DNA from: Candidatus Kaiserbacteria bacterium
GTDB lineage: Bacteria; Patescibacteriota; Minisyncoccia; Phycocordibacterales; UBA2100
Length of the DNA stretch: 42,346 bases
Direction: 5' to 3'
Assembly: GCA_016204805.1 (NCBI GenBank)
Contig: JACQKA010000044.1
Coordinates: 1 to 42,346 of the forward strand
Made by a program: the position numbers and the translations under genes. The stretch's first letter is position 1; each line of letters begins with the position of its first letter. The notes under the pieces are model-generated. The model was given only the letters and a program-made list of their open reading frames with translations. It was not told the DNA's origin and did not search any database. This document shows, piece after piece, positions 5,334 to 42,191 of this stretch.

Positions 5334-6539
5334 ATGAAAAAGTACACGGATGAATTCCCGTGGCGATATGCGGCGGCTAAGGGGAAGGAGTTATTGCTGC
5401 AGGGAATGGACGGTTCGCCCAAAGGTCGCTACCGCGCTGGCAAGGCGGCAGGATTCGACATCGAGATGGTGTTGAGTGAATCACCAACGGTTGTGAAGGG
5501 CATCACACTGCTCCCCACGCAGGACATTGTCTCACGACAAGGGGCGGTGTTGCCGCGCGCTTTCGATATCCGTACAGTGCCAGAACGTGAGAGTTGGACA
5601 TCGCTTTTTATCGGGCAACACACCCGCATTAATGCATATGTGTTTGATGTTGGGTCACGACTTATTCGAGACCATGATGCGGACCATGTCTGGTTTGTAT
5701 ACAATGGCTCCGGCATCTGTTACACAGACTATGGAAATTTCGGGTACCGCGCTGGCGATTTCATTTACGTACCACGCGGCACACTCACCTGCTTGACGGC
5801 ACGCAGCGGGGGTACTCGCATGATCGGCATCGAAAGCACCCAAGGCTTCCGTAAACGTGCTCGGTCAGTGTATGACAATATCATGGTGCCGTATAATGAG
5901 TTTGTAGTATCGTTGCCGATACCAGAGTACGTTGAAGATAGCGAAGAACTTCGAACGGTCTTGGTGCGTCGCGGCGGACAATGGAGCGAAATCACATACG
6001 CGTACACGCCGTTCTTGTGCCTCGCGTGGCAGGGAACGCCGTATCCGTTTGCGATCCACTCGAGCAAATTGAACCTGCCGTACGTGGACTCCATTCACCC
6101 GGATCCATCGAATTTTGCCGTGTTTGTCTCACCGGATGGTTCGGCAATGATATCAGTGCTGGGTTCGAGGCGAGTACATTCATTGCCATATGACCACGCG
6201 AATCCTTTAACTGAAGTACTTTTCTACGCAAAGGAATATGATGCGCGAAAGGGAAGTGACGGCGGTGTTGGCGAAAGTGGTACCGCGACCGTGCACCCCA
6301 TGGGTGTATGGCACGGGCCGCAGATGGCTGCGTTCGAGAACTGGAAGAAGCCGGCGTCTCCGAAAGATCTGCCATACATCGATGATCTTGCCATCATGTT
6401 CGAAACAGCCGATGCGCTCTTTCCGACGCTCGATGCAAAAGAAACGCTCATTCCCGGATATGAAAACTCCTGGCTTAGGAGTTGGGAAGAATATCAGTCG
6501 CGTCACCCAAAAGGCATGGGTGGCGTCGGTGGTTGGTAG
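5334..6539 (+). CDS. hmgA: Homogentisate 1,2-dioxygenase (short form)
   Basis: Cupin pattern DHDADHVWFVYNGSG...GDFIYVPRGT. Also LAWQGTPYPF, HPDPSNFAVF, LPYDHAN..TEVLFYAKEYDARKG and TVHPMGVWHGPQ, which align with canonical HGD metal-site motifs. Confidence 0.75.
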   Translation: MKKYTDEFPWRYAAAKGKELLLQGMDGSPKGRYRAGKAAGFDIEMVLSESPTVVKGITLLPTQDIVSRQGAVLPRAFDIRTVPERESWTSLFIGQHTRINAYVFDVGSRLIRDHDADHVWFVYNGSGICYTDYGNFGYRAGDFIYVPRGTLTCLTARSGGTRMIGIESTQGFRKRARSVYDNIMVPYNEFVVSLPIPEYVEDSEELRTVLVRRGGQWSEITYAYTPFLCLAWQGTPYPFAIHSSKLNLPYVDSIHPDPSNFAVFVSPDGSAMISVLGSRRVHSLPYDHANPLTEVLFYAKEYDARKGSDGGVGESGTATVHPMGVWHGPQMAAFENWKKPASPKDLPYIDDLAIMFETADALFPTLDAKETLIPGYENSWLRSWEEYQSRHPKGMGGVGGW

Positions 6540-6560
6540 TGTCAAGGTGTCACCTTGACA
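6540..6560. repeat. 21-nt palindrome tgtcaaggtg-t-caccttgaca directly after the hmgA stop
   Basis: Perfect 10-bp arms. The 18-nt core recurs at 38437-38454 and 42151-42168. Confidence 0.8.
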
Positions 6561-6574
6561 TAGGAACGAAGCAA

Positions 6575-16377: not shown

Positions 16378-16505
16378 ACCCTGTGAATAATGGCCGACAA
16401 TGCGCATCCTTTCGCGTATCATTATGGATATGCCCATACACCTATTCGCGCCTAGGCGTTCTATGATATTTTTCCTGACGAGTTCAATACCGCACGTCTT
16501 TCTGC

Positions 16506-16961
16506 ATGAACATGATTATCAGCATAAGCGCCGCGGCACAGCCGCAAGGCGCGAATAGGTGTACGGGTATGCTGGTTCGCCTCACACTGTTCACTGTAAC
16601 TGCGATCGCCATCGCCTATGCCGCACATATGTTTTTCGGGAGCATCATTTTCGCGGCGGCGGAAGAAGATGCGAGCGCCATCGTGCTCCGTGATATTTAT
16701 AAGAACGAACGGCATGAACTCTCCGGCATCGTCATGGTGCCGTCCACCTGCCACGATCTCACTGTGCGGGCAAAAGATATCGATGCGCGGAGCACCGCTA
16801 TCATCTTGGAAACGTGGGAACAACCATTTGCCAGTGCATGTGATAAGGCGCCGACACCGCGTGCCATCCATGTGACTGCATTCGGTCCGGAAGGACTCGA
16901 CCTGCGCGGCATGCAGGATGGCGCATGGGTGCCGCTTACCATCATCGAGACGCGTAACTAA
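16506..16961 (+). CDS. Hypothetical membrane-anchored protein
   Basis: One TM span (LVRLTLFTVTAIAIAYAAHMFFGSIIF). The start could be 16506 or 16569. Confidence 0.45.
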   Translation: MNMIISISAAAQPQGANRCTGMLVRLTLFTVTAIAIAYAAHMFFGSIIFAAAEEDASAIVLRDIYKNERHELSGIVMVPSTCHDLTVRAKDIDARSTAIILETWEQPFASACDKAPTPRAIHVTAFGPEGLDLRGMQDGAWVPLTIIETRN

Positions 16962-17929: not shown

Positions 17930-18445
17930 ATGAACGCATCCTACGGCTCGACGTTCTTGGTCGGCTTTACTGCAGGGGTGCTTGTGCTTTTCGCGATCGG
18001 CATCGTGACGAAGGGGGACATCCGGTACATGGGCGCACCGCGTGCAGATACTGCAATATTGTCGGGTGAAGATGTCGATGCGGTGACCGCCGGTAAAATG
18101 AGCGGCATGCGCGCAACACTCAACGTACAGGATCAGAATGCAGGTGCTGCTGTGTCGGTGGATCATGTGGCAATGGAGCAGGCGGGATGGGTGGTGGTGC
18201 ACGAAATCGAAAATGGCCATGTGTTGAATGCGCTCGGTGCCGCGCGGCTCGATGCGGGGGCGCACAGCGATGTAGGGGTGGAACTCTTGCGTGGTACCGA
18301 ACCAGGCGGACGCTATGCGGTCATTCTCTATAGTGATAATGGCGACAAACAATTCGAAGTGCACGCGGATCTTCCGGTCATCGACACTGCAGGAAACCCC
18401 GTTATGCAATCATTCCGCACCTTTGGCGGCGCTGCGGGGCAATAG
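17930..18445 (+). CDS. Hypothetical membrane-anchored or secreted protein (171 aa)
   Basis: N-terminal TM span. Beta-rich domain GWVVVHEIENGHV...YAVILYSDNGDKQFE. Confidence 0.5.
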   Translation: MNASYGSTFLVGFTAGVLVLFAIGIVTKGDIRYMGAPRADTAILSGEDVDAVTAGKMSGMRATLNVQDQNAGAAVSVDHVAMEQAGWVVVHEIENGHVLNALGAARLDAGAHSDVGVELLRGTEPGGRYAVILYSDNGDKQFEVHADLPVIDTAGNPVMQSFRTFGGAAGQ

Positions 18446-28441: not shown

Positions 28442-28476
28442 AAAAATAAGGAGCTTGCGACTATATTTTTCTTAAT

Positions 28477-28578
28477 CCAGCCCCACTTTTGCTTTTGAAC
28501 GATATATGTATATAATGCGTCACATTCATCCAACCTTTTGTTTTTGCGTGAGTTGTTAGCATGCAAAAGTGTGGCTGG
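28477..28578. repeat. Long-stem element E2: 16-bp stem (one mismatch; 18 bp with flanks) enclosing 70 nt, between infA and rpmJ
   Basis: ccagccccacttttgc (28477-28492) pairs with gcaaaagtgtggctgg (28563-28578). The loop contains tgtatataat. Confidence 0.75.
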
Positions 28579-28626
28579 ATGTAAGAGCTTCTACAAGCTC
28601 GTTCGCACTCGATAAGAATCTCTAAC
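28579..28626 (+). promoter_or_regulatory. Leader L1 immediately upstream of rpmJ (paralogous to L2)
   Basis: atgtaagagcttctacaagctcgttcgcactcgataagaatctctaac-ATG. Contains an ATG-TAA start-stop and the hairpin gagctt/aagctc. Confidence 0.6.
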
Positions 28627-28752: not shown

Positions 28753-28790
28753 TGCAATTGTATGAGTGCAACGAATAACAATTGCTCAAC

Positions 28791-28884
28791 CCCGCACTTT
28801 CTTACGAAATTTGAGTTAATACCAAAAATGTGCATAATCTTCGTACTATGGTAATTGATCAAAAACAACGTAAGAAAGTGCGGG
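28791..28884. repeat. Long-stem element E3: 16-bp perfect stem enclosing 62 nt, between rpmJ and rpsM
   Basis: cccgcactttcttacg (28791-28806) pairs with cgtaagaaagtgcggg (28869-28884). The loop contains tgtgcataatc. Confidence 0.8.
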
Positions 28885-28930
28885 ATGTAAGAGTTTTTAA
28901 GCTCGTTATCACTCGCTAACAATCTCTAAC
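28885..28930 (+). promoter_or_regulatory. Leader L2 immediately upstream of rpsM (paralogous to L1)
   Basis: atgtaagagtttttaagctcgttatcactcgctaacaatctctaac-ATG. 43 of 51 aligned columns are identical to L1 by hand alignment. Confidence 0.6.
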
Positions 28931-29325: not shown

Positions 29326-29455
29326 GGCCGTGACCTCCCTGAAAAAGACTGAAGCTTGGGCAATTCCCGTTTTGCCCAAGAGCGAAGCGATTGGGTGCAA
29401 AACGCAATCCTGTAAGGGACGCCCTCGAGTGGTCTTTTTCAGGGAGGTCACGGCC
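29326..29455. repeat. Long-stem element E4: 24-bp perfect stem enclosing 82 nt, between rpsM and rpsK
   Basis: ggccgtgacctccctgaaaaagac (29326-29349) pairs with gtctttttcagggaggtcacggcc (29432-29455). Confidence 0.85.
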
Positions 29456-30621: not shown

Positions 30622-31587
30622 ATGTTCGACTATCATGTTACGTTGCCGTCAAAGCCCAAGGTCATTTCGGAGGAAGGCAAGAGCGGTACCTATGAGATCG
30701 ACGGTCTCCACCCAGGATATGGATTCACGCTGGGCAATTCTCTGCGTCGCATCATCCTCTCGTCTTTGCCGGGTGCCGCGATCACACAGGTCAAGATCGA
30801 CGGCATCAAGCACGAATTTTCGACCATCGAAGGCGTCAAGGAGGACGTAGTTACGCTTTTGCTCCACCTCCGTCGCGTTCGCGTGCGCCTCTCGACCGAC
30901 GAGCCGCAGACCTTGAAGCTCAAGATAAAGGGTCCCAAGACCGTGACCGCATCGGACATCGAAGCGCCGGGCCAGGTAGAAATTTTGAATCCGGATCAAT
31001 ACATCGCGGAAGTTTCCGGCAAAGCGACATTGGATATCGAAATCACCGTCGAGCGCGGTCTCGGCTACCTTCCGAAAGAAGCGGTTCAGAAAGAGCGCGT
31101 TGACATCGGTATCATCCCGCTCGACGCGACATTCTCGCCGATCCGCCGCGTGAACTACGAAGTCGAAAACATGCGCGTGGGCGACCGTACTGATTACAAC
31201 CGTTTGCGCATGTTCATCGAAACCGATGGCACGCTTACGGCGCGCGAAGCACTTGAACGTTCGATCGAGATCATGATCCACCAGCTCCGCGCTATCGTTG
31301 GCTTCAAGGAAGAGGAGTTGCCGGCCGCTGCGGAGGAAGAGGCAGTTACGGATTCTGACCGCAAGGTAGACGAAAAGGCGGACATGGAAGCTCTCAAGGT
31401 GCGCATCTCTGAATTACAGCTCTCGATACGTGTTATCTCCGCCCTTGATGGCGCGAGTATCCGCACGATCGGAGGCCTGGTGCGCAAGCGCGAAGACGAC
31501 CTCCTCTCTATCGAAGGCTTGGGCCAGAAAGGACTTCAGGAAATTAAAAGGGCGCTCTCTAATTACGGTTTGACGCTCCGCCCGTAA
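30622..31587 (+). CDS. rpoA: DNA-directed RNA polymerase subunit alpha
   Basis: GYGFTLGNSLRRIILSSLPGAAIT in the N-terminal domain. C-terminal domain ELQLSIRVISALDGASIRTIGGLV. Confidence 0.95.
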   Translation: MFDYHVTLPSKPKVISEEGKSGTYEIDGLHPGYGFTLGNSLRRIILSSLPGAAITQVKIDGIKHEFSTIEGVKEDVVTLLLHLRRVRVRLSTDEPQTLKLKIKGPKTVTASDIEAPGQVEILNPDQYIAEVSGKATLDIEITVERGLGYLPKEAVQKERVDIGIIPLDATFSPIRRVNYEVENMRVGDRTDYNRLRMFIETDGTLTAREALERSIEIMIHQLRAIVGFKEEELPAAAEEEAVTDSDRKVDEKADMEALKVRISELQLSIRVISALDGASIRTIGGLVRKREDDLLSIEGLGQKGLQEIKRALSNYGLTLRP

Positions 31588-31594
31588 GTAGCTT

Positions 31595-31948
31595 ATGAGG
31601 CACCACAAAAAAGGCCGCACATTCGGACGAGTGAAGAAGCAGCAGACTGCTCTTTTGCGCTCGCTCACTCGCTCTCTTGTGTTGCGCGGCAACATCACCA
31701 CGACCGTCGCCAAGGCGAAAGAAATGCGCCCATATGTGGAGAAATTGGTAACCATCGCAAAAGCAGATACATTGCAGTCGCGCCGGGCACTCGAAAACCG
31801 TCTCGGTAATGCACGCGATGTGGTAAAGAAGCTCCACACGGACATTGCACCGAAATACGCAAAACGCTCCGGCGGATACACGCGTATCACCCGCCTCGGC
31901 AAGCGCGGCGCACGCAAAGCAGAAGAGGCCAAAATAGAATTCGTATGA
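31595..31948 (+). CDS. rplQ: 50S ribosomal protein L17
   Basis: MRHHKKGRTFGRVKKQQTALLRSLTRSLVLRGNITTTVAKAKEMRPYVEKLVT. Confidence 0.95.
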   Translation: MRHHKKGRTFGRVKKQQTALLRSLTRSLVLRGNITTTVAKAKEMRPYVEKLVTIAKADTLQSRRALENRLGNARDVVKKLHTDIAPKYAKRSGGYTRITRLGKRGARKAEEAKIEFV

Positions 31949-32481
31949 CAAGAACCGACCCCAAAAATAATGGCGTAGCGAGGGCGCTTCCGCCCGAGCG
32001 AGACGCCGTCGCGGAGAACGAGGCATATCGGGATATGTCGAGTTCGAGCGACAAGTCGCAGCCGGGCGGAAGCGACCGCAGTAGCCAAGCACACACAGTG
32101 TCGAATAAAAATGCGATTATTTTTGGGGTCGGTTCGCGAACCCACACTATAAATGCATCAGGCAAGAAATTCGGACGCGTCGCATCGGAGGCTGCTAAAG
32201 CGCTCATGGGCAAAATGCGCACAGACTACACGCCGAACAAACCGTCGGGTGTCTTGGTCGAGATCACCAACGCAGGCAATTTGGACATCGCACCTATTAA
32301 GAAGAGCGATGTCATCTACAAACGCTATTCCGGCTATCCGGGCGGTCAGCGGGAGGAGTCACTTGGCGCGCTCCTGCCGCGCCGCGGAATCTCGATCGCA
32401 TTAAGGAAGACCATCGAGCGCATGTTGCCAAGGAATTCGATGCGCAAAGACCGTATGAAGCATCTTTCAATCAAAGAATAA
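31945..32481 (+). CDS. rplM: 50S ribosomal protein L13 with an unusual ~65-aa N-terminal extension
   Basis: The L13 core starts at THTINASGKKFGRVASEAAKALMGKMRTDYTP. There is no in-frame ATG/GTG/TTG just upstream of the core. The in-frame ATG candidates are 31945 (ATGA overlap with the rplQ stop) and 32035. Confidence 0.8.
   Translation: MTRTDPKNNGVARALPPERDAVAENEAYRDMSSSSDKSQPGGSDRSSQAHTVSNKNAIIFGVGSRTHTINASGKKFGRVASEAAKALMGKMRTDYTPNKPSGVLVEITNAGNLDIAPIKKSDVIYKRYSGYPGGQREESLGALLPRRGISIALRKTIERMLPRNSMRKDRMKHLSIKE
31952..32135. repeat. Long-stem element E5: 21-bp perfect outer stem plus 12-bp inner stem, lying inside the 5' extension of rplM
   Basis: gaaccgaccccaaaaataatg (31952-31972) pairs with cattatttttggggtcggttc (32115-32135). 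Inner stem cgcttccgcccg / cgggcggaagcg. Apex catatc-ggg-atatg. Confidence 0.85.
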
Positions 32482-32482
32482 T

Positions 32483-32881
32483 ATGGCTACGAAATCAGCT
32501 ACATACATAGAAGCCGTGGGCCGTCGCAAGATGGCGACCGCACGCGTGCGCATTATCCCGAGCAAGCAGGCAAAAATGACGGTGAACGATCAGACTGTTG
32601 CGGACTATTTTAAGACTATGGTGCTCCAGAGTGTTGCCCGCGCCGCGCTTGATGTAGCAGGGGAGAAATTAGAAGTTACCGCAAAAGTACGCGGCGGCGG
32701 CATGCAGGCCCAGGCGGAAGCAGTACGCCACGCGCTCGCGCGTGCCATCACGGAACGTACTCCTGAACTCCGCAAAGACCTCAAGCGCAAAGGGTTTCTC
32801 AAGCGTGATCCCCGCACCAAAGAACGCAAAAAATTCGGCCTCGTCGCTGCTCGAAGGGCGCCACAATGGTCGAAGCGCTAG
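32483..32881 (+). CDS. rpsI: 30S ribosomal protein S9
   Basis: GRRKMATARVRI..., VRGGGMQAQAEAVRHALARA, RDPRTKERKKFGLVAARRAPQWSKR. Confidence 0.95.
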   Translation: MATKSATYIEAVGRRKMATARVRIIPSKQAKMTVNDQTVADYFKTMVLQSVARAALDVAGEKLEVTAKVRGGGMQAQAEAVRHALARAITERTPELRKDLKRKGFLKRDPRTKERKKFGLVAARRAPQWSKR

Positions 32882-36702: not shown

Positions 36703-37614
36703 ATGGCTGGACTTAAAAACATAAAATTGAAGATATCGTCCGTCGGCAAGACGCGGAAAGTCACGCGCGCGATGGAGGCGGTTTCGGCTGTGAAGATGCG
36801 CAAGACACAGGAGCGCGCTCTTTTGGGACGCCCGTACGCAACGGCCGCGATTTCTATACTGCACTCTCTTGCTGGTGGCATCGATGCGGCGAATCATCCG
36901 CTGATGCAGAAACGCGATGGCAAAGCCGCGCTCATCGTGATCACCAGCGACAAGGGGCTCGCGGGTAGTTTGAACAGCAACGTGCTTCGTGCCGCTGAGG
37001 AGGTGATAAAAGAGCACCATTTGAATAAGAACGAAATTGTTATCTATGCCATCGGCCGCCGCGGTGCGGATTATTTTGCGAACCGTGGATACGATGTTCG
37101 CGAGCGTCATGAAAATGTCGCAGACGATGTACCGGTTGCGGAATTGCGTACGGCTACGGATGCGATACTCGCATGGCACAACGCAGGCGAGATCGGCCGC
37201 TGCTACATCGTGTACACGAATTTTCTCTCGACGTTTGAACAGAAGCCCATTGTGCGCCGCGTGATCCCGCTCGCGCCGGTCGCTCTTAAAGAGATGGTCG
37301 AAGGCATTCCGCCGGTCAAAGGCAAATATTCAAATGGAAAGATTATCGACAAGACTCCTATCTATACGATCGAGCCGAACGCGGAAGAAGTATTCAATGT
37401 ACTTTTGCCGGACTTGATCCATATCATCGTGTTCCATGCACTGCTCGAAGCGAAAGCATCCGAACATTCAGCGCGTATGGTCGCGATGAAAAACGCGACG
37501 GATAAGGCGCGGGACGTGGGCAAGATGCTCACGCTCAAGTACAATAAAGCACGCCAAGCCGCCATCACTCGCGAGGTCAGCGAGATAACCAGTGGCATCG
37601 AGGCGATGAGGTGA
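36703..37614 (+). CDS. atpG: F0F1 ATP synthase subunit gamma
   Basis: MAGLKNIKLKISSVGKTRKVTRAMEAVSAVKMRK... and the C-terminal ARQAAITREVSEITSG. Confidence 0.9.
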   Translation: MAGLKNIKLKISSVGKTRKVTRAMEAVSAVKMRKTQERALLGRPYATAAISILHSLAGGIDAANHPLMQKRDGKAALIVITSDKGLAGSLNSNVLRAAEEVIKEHHLNKNEIVIYAIGRRGADYFANRGYDVRERHENVADDVPVAELRTATDAILAWHNAGEIGRCYIVYTNFLSTFEQKPIVRRVIPLAPVALKEMVEGIPPVKGKYSNGKIIDKTPIYTIEPNAEEVFNVLLPDLIHIIVFHALLEAKASEHSARMVAMKNATDKARDVGKMLTLKYNKARQAAITREVSEITSGIEAMR

Positions 37615-37636
37615 TTTAATAATTTAGCTAAATTTT

Positions 37637-37981
37637 ATGACAGAATTTGTACCACAAAAGCGAGGAGGGAAGCAATATGCTGAAGTTTTGCGAGAAATGG
37701 AAAATTTACCGTCCATTCTTATGAGGATGTTAATAAGTGAGGGCATGGAGCAAGGTGAAGTTGCAGAAGAGGTAAGGAGAGAAGTCAATAACACACTCGA
37801 TAACTTCAAGATCAAGTTGAGAGAGCTTGATCAAAATAAATCCGCAGATCAGGAGGCGTTTCGAATTATTACGAATAATTTAGTAAGTGATATCTTGAGC
37901 TTTGGCGGGGTGCCTCATGCAAAAGTCGATCAAATCGTACGAAAGGCCATTAGAGAATGTTTTGCGCTTGACGAAAAATAA
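37637..37981 (+). CDS. Hypothetical protein (114 aa) inside the atp operon
   Basis: ORF with helical, charged composition. No family recognised. Its first 12 nt (ATGACAGAATTT, MTEF) are identical to the atpA start. Confidence 0.45.
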   Translation: MTEFVPQKRGGKQYAEVLREMENLPSILMRMLISEGMEQGEVAEEVRREVNNTLDNFKIKLRELDQNKSADQEAFRIITNNLVSDILSFGGVPHAKVDQIVRKAIRECFALDEK

Positions 37982-37987
37982 CAAAAC

Positions 37988-38038
37988 ATGAAAGGCACTA
38001 TCACACAAATAGTCGGACCGGTTGTGGATGCAAAATGA
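37988..38038 (+). pseudogene. Relic copy of the atpD 5' end (16 codons plus stop)
   Basis: [14 protein letters not shown] is identical to the atpD N-terminus. There are 5 differences in 42 nt, all synonymous third positions. The copy then diverges (AK) and stops at TGA. Confidence 0.75.
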
Positions 38039-38050
38039 ACGGGATATAAT
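38022..38050 (+). promoter_or_regulatory. Promoter TTGTGG-17-TATAAT, -10 box 6 nt before ATG 38057
   Basis: The -35 lies inside the atpD relic. tataat-gtgttt-ATG. Confidence 0.5.
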
Positions 38051-38056
38051 GTGTTT

Positions 38057-39717
<1,661 letters not shown>

Positions 39718-42141: not shown

Positions 42142-42174
42142 CCTCAATATCAAGGTGACACCTTGATATTGAGG
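42142..42174. terminator. 33-nt perfect palindrome between convergent genes (bidirectional hairpin)
   Basis: cctcaatatcaaggtg-a-caccttgatattgagg. Shares its core with the palindrome at 6540-6560. Confidence 0.6.
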
Positions 42175-42191
42175 GTGCGGGAGCGGAGCGA

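Follow-up and report, generated by a model that had tools for sequence, protein, structure and literature searches.

Rickettsia palindromic elements (RPEs) comprise, in the work of Ogata et al. (2000, 2002) as summarised in PMC10969869, ten families, with 44 copies in R. conorii, and encode conserved peptides. [quoted passage not shown] The present analysis concerns a hairpin-forming element that interrupts rplM, the gene of the ribosomal protein uL13 (L13), in a 42,346-nt contig stretch of Candidatus Kaiserbacteria (GCA_016204805.1, JACQKA010000044.1), referred to below as the window. The extra sequence is an insertion that is missing from close relatives, and it is probably an orphan foldback or MITE-like insertion through which uL13 is translated from the ancestral ATG. 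Positions are those of the window, and all features of the rplM locus lie on its + strand.

The element resembles the RPEs in being a hairpin-forming insert in the 100-200-bp range within a protein-coding gene (housekeeping genes included), with the frame kept and a peptide segment added that is presumably tolerated at the protein surface. Its sequence displays a stable hairpin palindrome and an in-frame, stop-free insertion of 62 codons. It differs from the RPEs in being known from one copy, in having no similarity to any family model, in its host, which belongs to the Patescibacteria or candidate phyla radiation (CPR), and in its location at the extreme N-terminus, after codon 4. A repeated family, the defining trait of RPEs and MITEs alike, was not found for it in the collections searched, and neither was family homology among the protein models of Pfam and NCBIfam.

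The element is also similar to bacterial MITEs and foldback elements (ERIC, BOX, Correia/NEMIS, and the Anabaena MITEs) in its small size (181-186 nt), its terminal inverted repeats of 20-23 bp, and its 5-bp direct repeat; further likenesses to the MITEs of PMC10969869 are a non-coding origin, a stable RNA hairpin, and the ability to fuse in frame with host open reading frames (ORFs). It has no family match in any frame. Unlike MITEs, it has no further copies and no related autonomous parent insertion sequence in the collections searched or among phages and plasmids; moreover, its right repeat is 7 nt subterminal, and a 12-nt palindrome lies at one junction. Judged by its sequence, the rplM element is best filed as an orphan instance of in-frame selfish palindromic DNA, without homology to any known family. 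In the literature searched, no report of such elements in Patescibacteria was found, MITEs and Patescibacteria being co-mentioned only incidentally.

The insertion in rplM and its hairpin

The present rplM ORF (31945-32481) encodes 178 aa and consists of four ancestral codons (MTRT), 62 inserted codons, and 112 ancestral codons. The Pfam domain Ribosomal_L13 (PF00572) is confined to residues 65-176 of the product, and TIGR01066 covers residues 67-176. The conserved uL13 core, as delimited by these two models and by AlphaFold, starts with HTINASGKKFGRV at 32143 and runs to the stop at 32481.

A search of 5.8 billion proteins yielded 123 L13 relatives, all of the Parcubacteria/Kaiserbacteria type, of which 120 were listed with lengths and alignments. 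The listed homologues have 111-143 aa, and none of the 120 aligns to the N-terminal 62 residues. The closest of them (84-93% identity) have 116 aa, which is exactly 178 minus 62, save for one 128-aa protein with an unrelated N-terminal extension; those whose L13 is 90-93% identical are 116-aa proteins without exception. At the DNA level, the nearest relatives compared were the sister genome L001 (GCA_964404835.1, ~90% nucleotide identity) and L004 (~83%). Alignment with both gives a single clean gap of 186 nt (62 codons) between codons 4 and 5. The insertion is placed at 31957-32142 or equally at 31952-32137, owing to a flanking GAACC repeat, and the element proper, that is, 186 nt minus the 5-bp repeat, has 181 nt (31957-32137). 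The site in the window reads ATGACAAGAACC, 186 nt, CACACT, and excision of the 186 nt restores MTRTHTINA. This is collinear with MTKTYSINA and MNKTHTID of the two relatives, whose uninterrupted sites read ATGACCAAAACC followed directly by TATTCC and ATGAACAAAACT followed directly by CACACC, respectively. Among 80 related genomes (GTDB representatives), not one carries an insertion at the rplM 5' end. N-terminal extensions hinted at by long tblastn matches in six loci (L036, L040, L018, L053, L089, and L060) turned out to be read-through of the preceding frame. The extra rplM sequence is an insertion missing from close relatives, and on the evidence of these alignments it appears to be recent and lineage-specific.

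The insert contains a long imperfect palindrome that spans 31952-32135. The left outer arm (GAACCGACCCCAAAAATAATGGC, 31952-31974) and the right outer arm (GCGATTATTTTTGGGGTCGGTTC, 32113-32135) form an inverted repeat of 23 nt with 96% complementarity, and the resulting outer stem has 20 perfect bp (31952-31971 / 32116-32135) or 23 bp with one mismatch. Within it lies an inner stem (31982-31996 / 32063-32077; 15 nt, 93%), which encloses an apical stem-loop (32016-32029 / 32032-32045) found by inverted-repeat search. The 3' side of the hairpin includes an A-rich, asymmetric segment (32078-32112), which is largely unpaired in the minimum free energy (MFE) structure and by pairing probabilities, and which contains a GTG in frame at 32098 and an ATG out of frame at 32111. 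The MFE of the element RNA is -104.4 kcal/mol, as compared with -63.1 ± 4.3 kcal/mol in 200 dinucleotide shuffles (z = -9.6), and none of the 200 shuffles reaches the stability of the element. Within the window, the 20-mer arm is present at its two hairpin sites only (0 expected by chance), with no further site at three or fewer mismatches. A promoter or terminator consensus was sought in and around the element, and none was found.

These results bear on an original prediction made from the sequence of the window, which had described a hairpin-forming element of about 190 nt lying in frame within the 5' part of rplM. What it described is essentially correct, apart from an in-frame GTG that it missed (below), and its interpretation is borne out in part. 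The fold (z = -9.6) and the 186-nt gap agree with that description, and the alignment of orthologues proposed there as a check speaks for an embedded element rather than a conserved extension, in that no listed L13 homologue shares the 62-residue segment. The two arms are translated, as had been stated, as TDPKNN and IIFGVGS, with the L13 frame open across the element. The rplM ATG at 31945 does overlap the rplQ stop as ATGA in the ORF list and the sequence. The outer stem had been given as 21 perfect bp, where 20 are found. The inner and apical stems both exist, the inner one measuring 15 nt at 93%. The insert amounts to 62 codons, and its peptide is predicted to be disordered.

The junctions of the insertion are marked by GAACC in the order direct, inverted, direct. 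The left direct copy (31952-31956), which doubles as the left arm's outermost 5 bp, and the right direct copy (32138-32142), identified from the sequence and the DNA alignment, constitute a candidate target-site duplication or crossover core. The inverted copy, GGTTC, lies in the right end of the element and pairs with the left GAACC. A search for palindromes with overlapping arms gave a perfect 12-nt palindrome, GGTTCGCGAACC, at the right junction (32131-32142). The event can be described, on this arrangement of repeats, as a putative 181-nt element with a 5-bp target duplication. Under this duplication model the right inverted repeat is 7 nt subterminal, and a circularised element would carry a 20-nt perfect palindrome at its joint. 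Because of the inverted GGTTC and the 12-nt palindrome at the right end, recombination at the 5-bp core or at microhomology stays an alternative to transposition; a single GAACC case cannot tell target duplication from microhomology or core crossover.

Translation of the interrupted gene

The reading favoured here, with moderate confidence, is that an orphan foldback or MITE-like element inserted into rplM and that uL13 is translated from the ancestral ATG through the element. The 181-nt imperfect palindrome, with a 5-bp GAACC target duplication, would have landed between codons 4 and 5 either by transposition or by recombination at a 5-bp core or microhomology. The preceding gene, rplQ (31595-31948), encodes bL17 (117 aa; Pfam Ribosomal_L17, E = 3e-30), and its TGA (31946-31948) shares bases with the rplM ATG in the ATGA overlap, as it does in L001 and L004. 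Because this overlap leaves no intergenic space, the insert is placed 7-12 nt inside rplM. Ribosomes that end rplQ would re-initiate at the overlapping ATG, as in the relatives, and would melt the hairpin and read through the element. From known ribosome footprints, a ribosome stopping at the rplQ terminator already covers the first bases of the stem. The product would be a uL13 with an unstructured N-terminal tail of 62 residues that the ribosome tolerates. The insertion would have survived in an essential gene precisely because the frame was preserved, and the element would have no function of its own, being selfish or neutral DNA.

The insertion has left the ancestral rplM ATG, and the coupling of this ATG to rplQ, unchanged. 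When 31800-32300 is folded with a partition function, the probability of being unpaired is 0.87 for ATG 31945, 0.00 for ATG 32035, and 0.01 for GTG 32098, and of the candidate starts ATG 31945 alone is predicted to be free of pairing. The length of the insert is divisible by three, and no stop codon occurs in frame. This open, in-frame state would be expected of an insert through which translation had to continue, while a downstream start or a bypass needs none of it. Of the dinucleotide shuffles of the insert, 12.4% are stop-free in frame, so that a random insert of this composition would be both in frame and open with a chance of about 1/3 × 0.12 = 0.04; alternatively, three of the six frames of the element are open, which gives 1/3 × 3/6 = 0.17. 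In the AlphaFold2 model, residues 1-62 are coil with a predicted local distance difference test (pLDDT) of 46-61, and the L13 core has pLDDT values of 87-97 from residue 71 on (10-residue blocks). The insert peptide is accordingly modelled, and predicted, as disordered.

Should the 178-aa protein be made, an early-assembly, essential ribosomal protein in a CPR bacterium with a minimal genome tolerates a disordered tail of 62 residues gained in one step, and the case is a natural one, outside Rickettsia, of selfish palindromic DNA creating protein sequence. By itself, the rplM element opens no new mechanism and is an event of a known kind.

Several points weigh against this explanation. The open, in-frame state could still be due to chance, at the 4-17% estimated above, and the in-frame GTG 32098 and ATG 32035 could act as starts. 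The 23-bp stem is a potential substrate of RNase III, whose cleavage would cut the ancestral start from the gene. The inverted GAACC copy in the right end (within GGTTCGCGAACC) is unexplained by simple transposition. Finally, no second copy was found in the collections searched, so that the mobility of the element is read from its architecture (terminal inverted repeats and a direct repeat) and from the company it keeps.

The rival explanation that fares best, and that may be regarded as unlikely yet still of some weight, is that the insert is an untranslated or incidentally translated spacer, that uL13 starts at GTG 32098, ATG 32035, or one of the ATT codons at 32116 and 32119, and that the open frame is a coincidence. 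The original prediction had offered a related alternative, a non-coding leader followed by an ATT start, on the premise that no in-frame ATG, GTG, or TTG occurs in the ~30 codons before the core. That premise is wrong. An in-frame GTG (32098-32100; codon 52, the V of HTVSNK) lies 13 codons upstream of R-T-H-T-I-N-A and would give a 127-aa uL13, and an in-frame ATG (32035-32037) would give a protein of 148 aa. Since GTG 32098 exists, ATT is not the sole downstream start option, and the alternative survives in this modified form. It gains from the position of the GTG in the mostly unpaired 3' segment of the hairpin, where the flanks are open (mean probability of being unpaired, 0.66 over -12 to +12), and from a chance of an open, in-frame insert that is not negligible. 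It also gains from the length of L13. Profile position 15 of TIGR01066 is aligned to residue 67, and by this alignment an ordinary bacterial L13 would have ~14 residues before that point, compared with about four in the local 116-aa form; the offset places some extra N-terminal length within the normal range of L13, and N-termini 11-14 residues beyond the local form are normal for bacterial L13.

On the other hand, ribosomes should start at the intact, coupled ancestral ATG and read through the insert anyway, and the GTG and the ATG codons are themselves predicted to be paired, the ATG in the apical stem. Shine-Dalgarno (SD) motifs are missing from most genes in the window, and no SD or -10-like signal is present before ATG 32035 or GTG 32098; with genes that are mostly SD-less, there is no obvious signal for internal de novo initiation. 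The stop-free, in-frame state, again, is not needed by a spacer.

Quite improbable is a functional role for the hairpin RNA, either as an rplM-rpsI leader for autoregulation by uL13 or as an RNase III processing or stability site that divides an rpoA-rplQ message from an rplM-rpsI message. The hairpin is highly stable, and its site is an operon junction (rpoA, 30622-31587; rpsI, 32483-32881) that separates transcription units in many bacteria; further long hairpins occur between genes of the same cluster, and one family of these (E1/E2, below) is conserved 5' of ribosomal-protein genes in several Kaiserbacteria. The element is like the L13_leader RNA, presumably Rfam RF00555, in being a structured RNA directly 5' of the uL13 core coding sequence, but it is located downstream of the ancestral start codon, matches nothing in Rfam, whether at the gathering score or at E ≤ 10, and is not conserved, being missing from the closest relatives and from the 80 related genomes. 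It also lacks sequence similarity to the other hairpins, and its cleavage, inside the ancestral coding sequence (CDS), would cost the gene its start codon.

An assembly or amplification artefact, for example an inverted chimera, is very improbable. Hairpins do break assemblies, as illustrated by a Logan contig (L095) that begins inside another hairpin of the window (E3, below). The exact 178-aa product is on record for two contigs only, the window contig and one Logan contig, and the two insert-carrying assemblies may stem from the same reads. However, the Logan assembly contig in question (L009, run SRR12113384), made by another assembler, is 100% identical over 1264 nt, insert included, and an imperfect, asymmetric palindrome of exactly 62 codons with a 5-bp flanking repeat and an open frame is not what would be expected of a chimera.

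Least probable of all is that ribosomes hop from ACC 31954-31956 to ACC 32140-32142 and so restore the ancestral 116-aa uL13 (junction peptide MTRTHTINASGK), because, although a mobile insert in a CDS, a take-off codon in the base of a very stable hairpin, and identical Arg-Thr codon pairs ([A/C]GA ACC) made by the 5-bp duplication on both sides and brought together by the stem recall T4 gene 60 and mitochondrial byp bypassing, whose gaps, according to bioRxiv 10.1101/2022.08.31.505936, can arrive with mobile elements, the gap is 183 nt compared with ~50 nt in those systems (50 nt in gene 60), no stop follows the take-off codon (the next codon is GAC), a nascent chain of only four residues leaves no room for a peptide signal, and the insert is translatable, open, and in frame, which bypassing does not need. 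If true, this would amount to programmed translational bypassing of 183 nt in an essential gene of a cell, far beyond any known length.

A separate observation concerns the start sites of the window in general. Many of its genes have a TAnnnT box (TACACT or TATAAT, often with TG before it) 6-8 nt 5' of the ATG, for example those with ATGs at 17930, 18464, 19027, 26825, 30622, and 39992. Such boxes in the absence of SD motifs suggest leaderless or coupled initiation, and possibly widespread leaderless mRNAs in this organism.

Searches for further copies and known families

In the original prediction the element was likened to the RPEs, and a short-word blastn search for other copies of its arms was proposed. 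Membership of a repeated, RPE-like family is not supported: no other copy of the arms or of the interior was found in any collection searched, and when the element was compared by blastn-short with the window and with 1.3 Mb of related loci, no second copy appeared. The exact 20-mer arm has no match in collections of genome contigs and viral contigs. A two-arm pattern has five matches in the JGI metagenome contigs, all of them unrelated palindromes that have just the 12-mer in common. Against phages and plasmids, blastn at settings for distant similarity returned nothing, or noise at E ~ 0.6. "Single copy" accordingly means that no copy was found where searched, and the genome itself was searched within its 42-kb window.

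At the protein level, the concatenated six-frame translation of the element has no match at E ≤ 10 among the 5.8 billion proteins, with the caveat that insert-bearing proteins may hide in clusters represented by insert-free ones, as is the case for this uL13. Translated in its three open frames, the insert matches no Pfam or NCBIfam domain at E ≤ 1; NCBIfam includes an RPE1 domain model. An intein was considered and rejected, as the insert has 62 aa compared with at least ~130 aa for a splicing domain with its Hint motifs, lacks a Pfam or NCBIfam match, and is predicted to be disordered.

Other hairpins and insertions in the lineage

The window holds at least five further long hairpins of the same build as the rplM element, with a near-perfect outer stem of 16-27 bp and an interior of 80-140 nt. 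Three are at gene boundaries of the ribosomal-protein cluster, namely E1 (28442-28626, infA/rpmJ), E2 (28753-28930, rpmJ/rpsM), and E3 (29326-29455, rpsM/rpsK); E4 (2017-2151) is upstream of rplU, and E5 (16430-16570) is upstream of a membrane-protein gene. L004 has none of E1-E3, its spacers at these sites being 11, 12, and 85 nt, respectively. Exact look-ups (S11 and S13) for closer empty sites of E1-E3 yielded at most one short contig, which came from the same sample. In the sister genome L001, two different inserts are found, at rpoA/rplQ and at rplM/rpsI.

These hairpins and the L001 inserts are like the rplM element in architecture, in their occurrence at gene boundaries of the ribosomal-protein cluster, and in being missing from relatives. 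They differ from it in that the gene is left intact, their positions being intergenic or the start codon being duplicated, while the rplM element is inside a CDS. Homology of the rplM element to the other hairpins of the window or of L001 was sought and rejected (z ≤ 0.9). With an exact arm of at least 14 nt and a loop of 30-320 nt as the counting rule, the hairpin density is 6 per 42-kb window, as compared with ~30 per 1.25 Mb of related loci. By these comparisons, the lineage is accumulating foldback insertions at gene boundaries. The pattern suggests that compact genomes are peppered with foldback elements, of which only start-codon- or frame-preserving insertions survive. In practice, this matters when genes are called in CPR genomes and when phylogenies are built from their ribosomal proteins.

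E1 is related to E2, and both are related to copies 5' of ribosomal-protein start codons in several Kaiserbacteria. Further copies of their module occur in L068 (3), L070 (2), L054, L076, and L016, directly 5' of the ATGs of ribosomal-protein genes or rpoA, and the module is missing at the same sites in L004. It is made up of a long hairpin (a stem of the CCAGCCCC...GGGGCTGG type with a variable interior), a small hairpin (GAGCTTCTAAGCTC), and a tail (CTCGCTAAGAATCTCTAAC) that leads into the ATG. A TAAGAAT box 7 nt before the ATG in this module looks like a putative -10 element of a leaderless transcript.

E3 and E4 have perfect outer stems of 24 bp and 22 bp, respectively, both starting with GGCCG, and no similarity was detected between the two, or between either of them and the rplM element or a related locus. 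E5 (16426-16572 with its flanks) is bordered by GGATATGC and GGGTATGC, and the L001 inserts (1645-1971 and 2673-2958 of that locus) are bordered by GGTATG/GGTATG and ATATT/ATATG. Since the flanking repeats of E5 and of the L001 inserts include the start codon, an ATG is preserved for the gene downstream. E5 and the L001 rplM/rpsI insert are homologous at their 3' ends. The 5' part (CCGGTAGTAKAATTTCAGCTYAATTATGTCCACCA) is common to both L001 inserts, which also have assembly gaps in the form of N-runs. The Logan contig L095 (SRR12113384) starts at about 29414 of the window, inside E3; such hairpins fragment short-read assemblies and may be under-represented in metagenome-assembled genomes.

A different type of insertion may be present between atpG and atpD (37615-38381). 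Two small ORFs are found in the region, one of 114 aa (37637-37981) and one of 97 aa (38051-38344), together with a duplicate, 42 nt long, of the 5' end of atpD (37987-38028 and 38340-38381, 90% identical), the upstream copy being a stub of 16 codons. The GC content dips to 0.47 in 37001-38000. The arrangement resembles what a gene-carrying insertion at the start of atpD would leave, with the 5' end of the gene brought in or duplicated by it.

Two adjacent tRNA genes (822-976, - strand) are the sole Rfam matches at the gathering score in the window. A short, palindrome-containing repeat with the core CAAGGTGACACCTTG is present in three copies (6538-6568, 38432-38462, and 42146-42176), two of which are at gene ends and have the look of terminators, and one of which is inside the atpD CDS.

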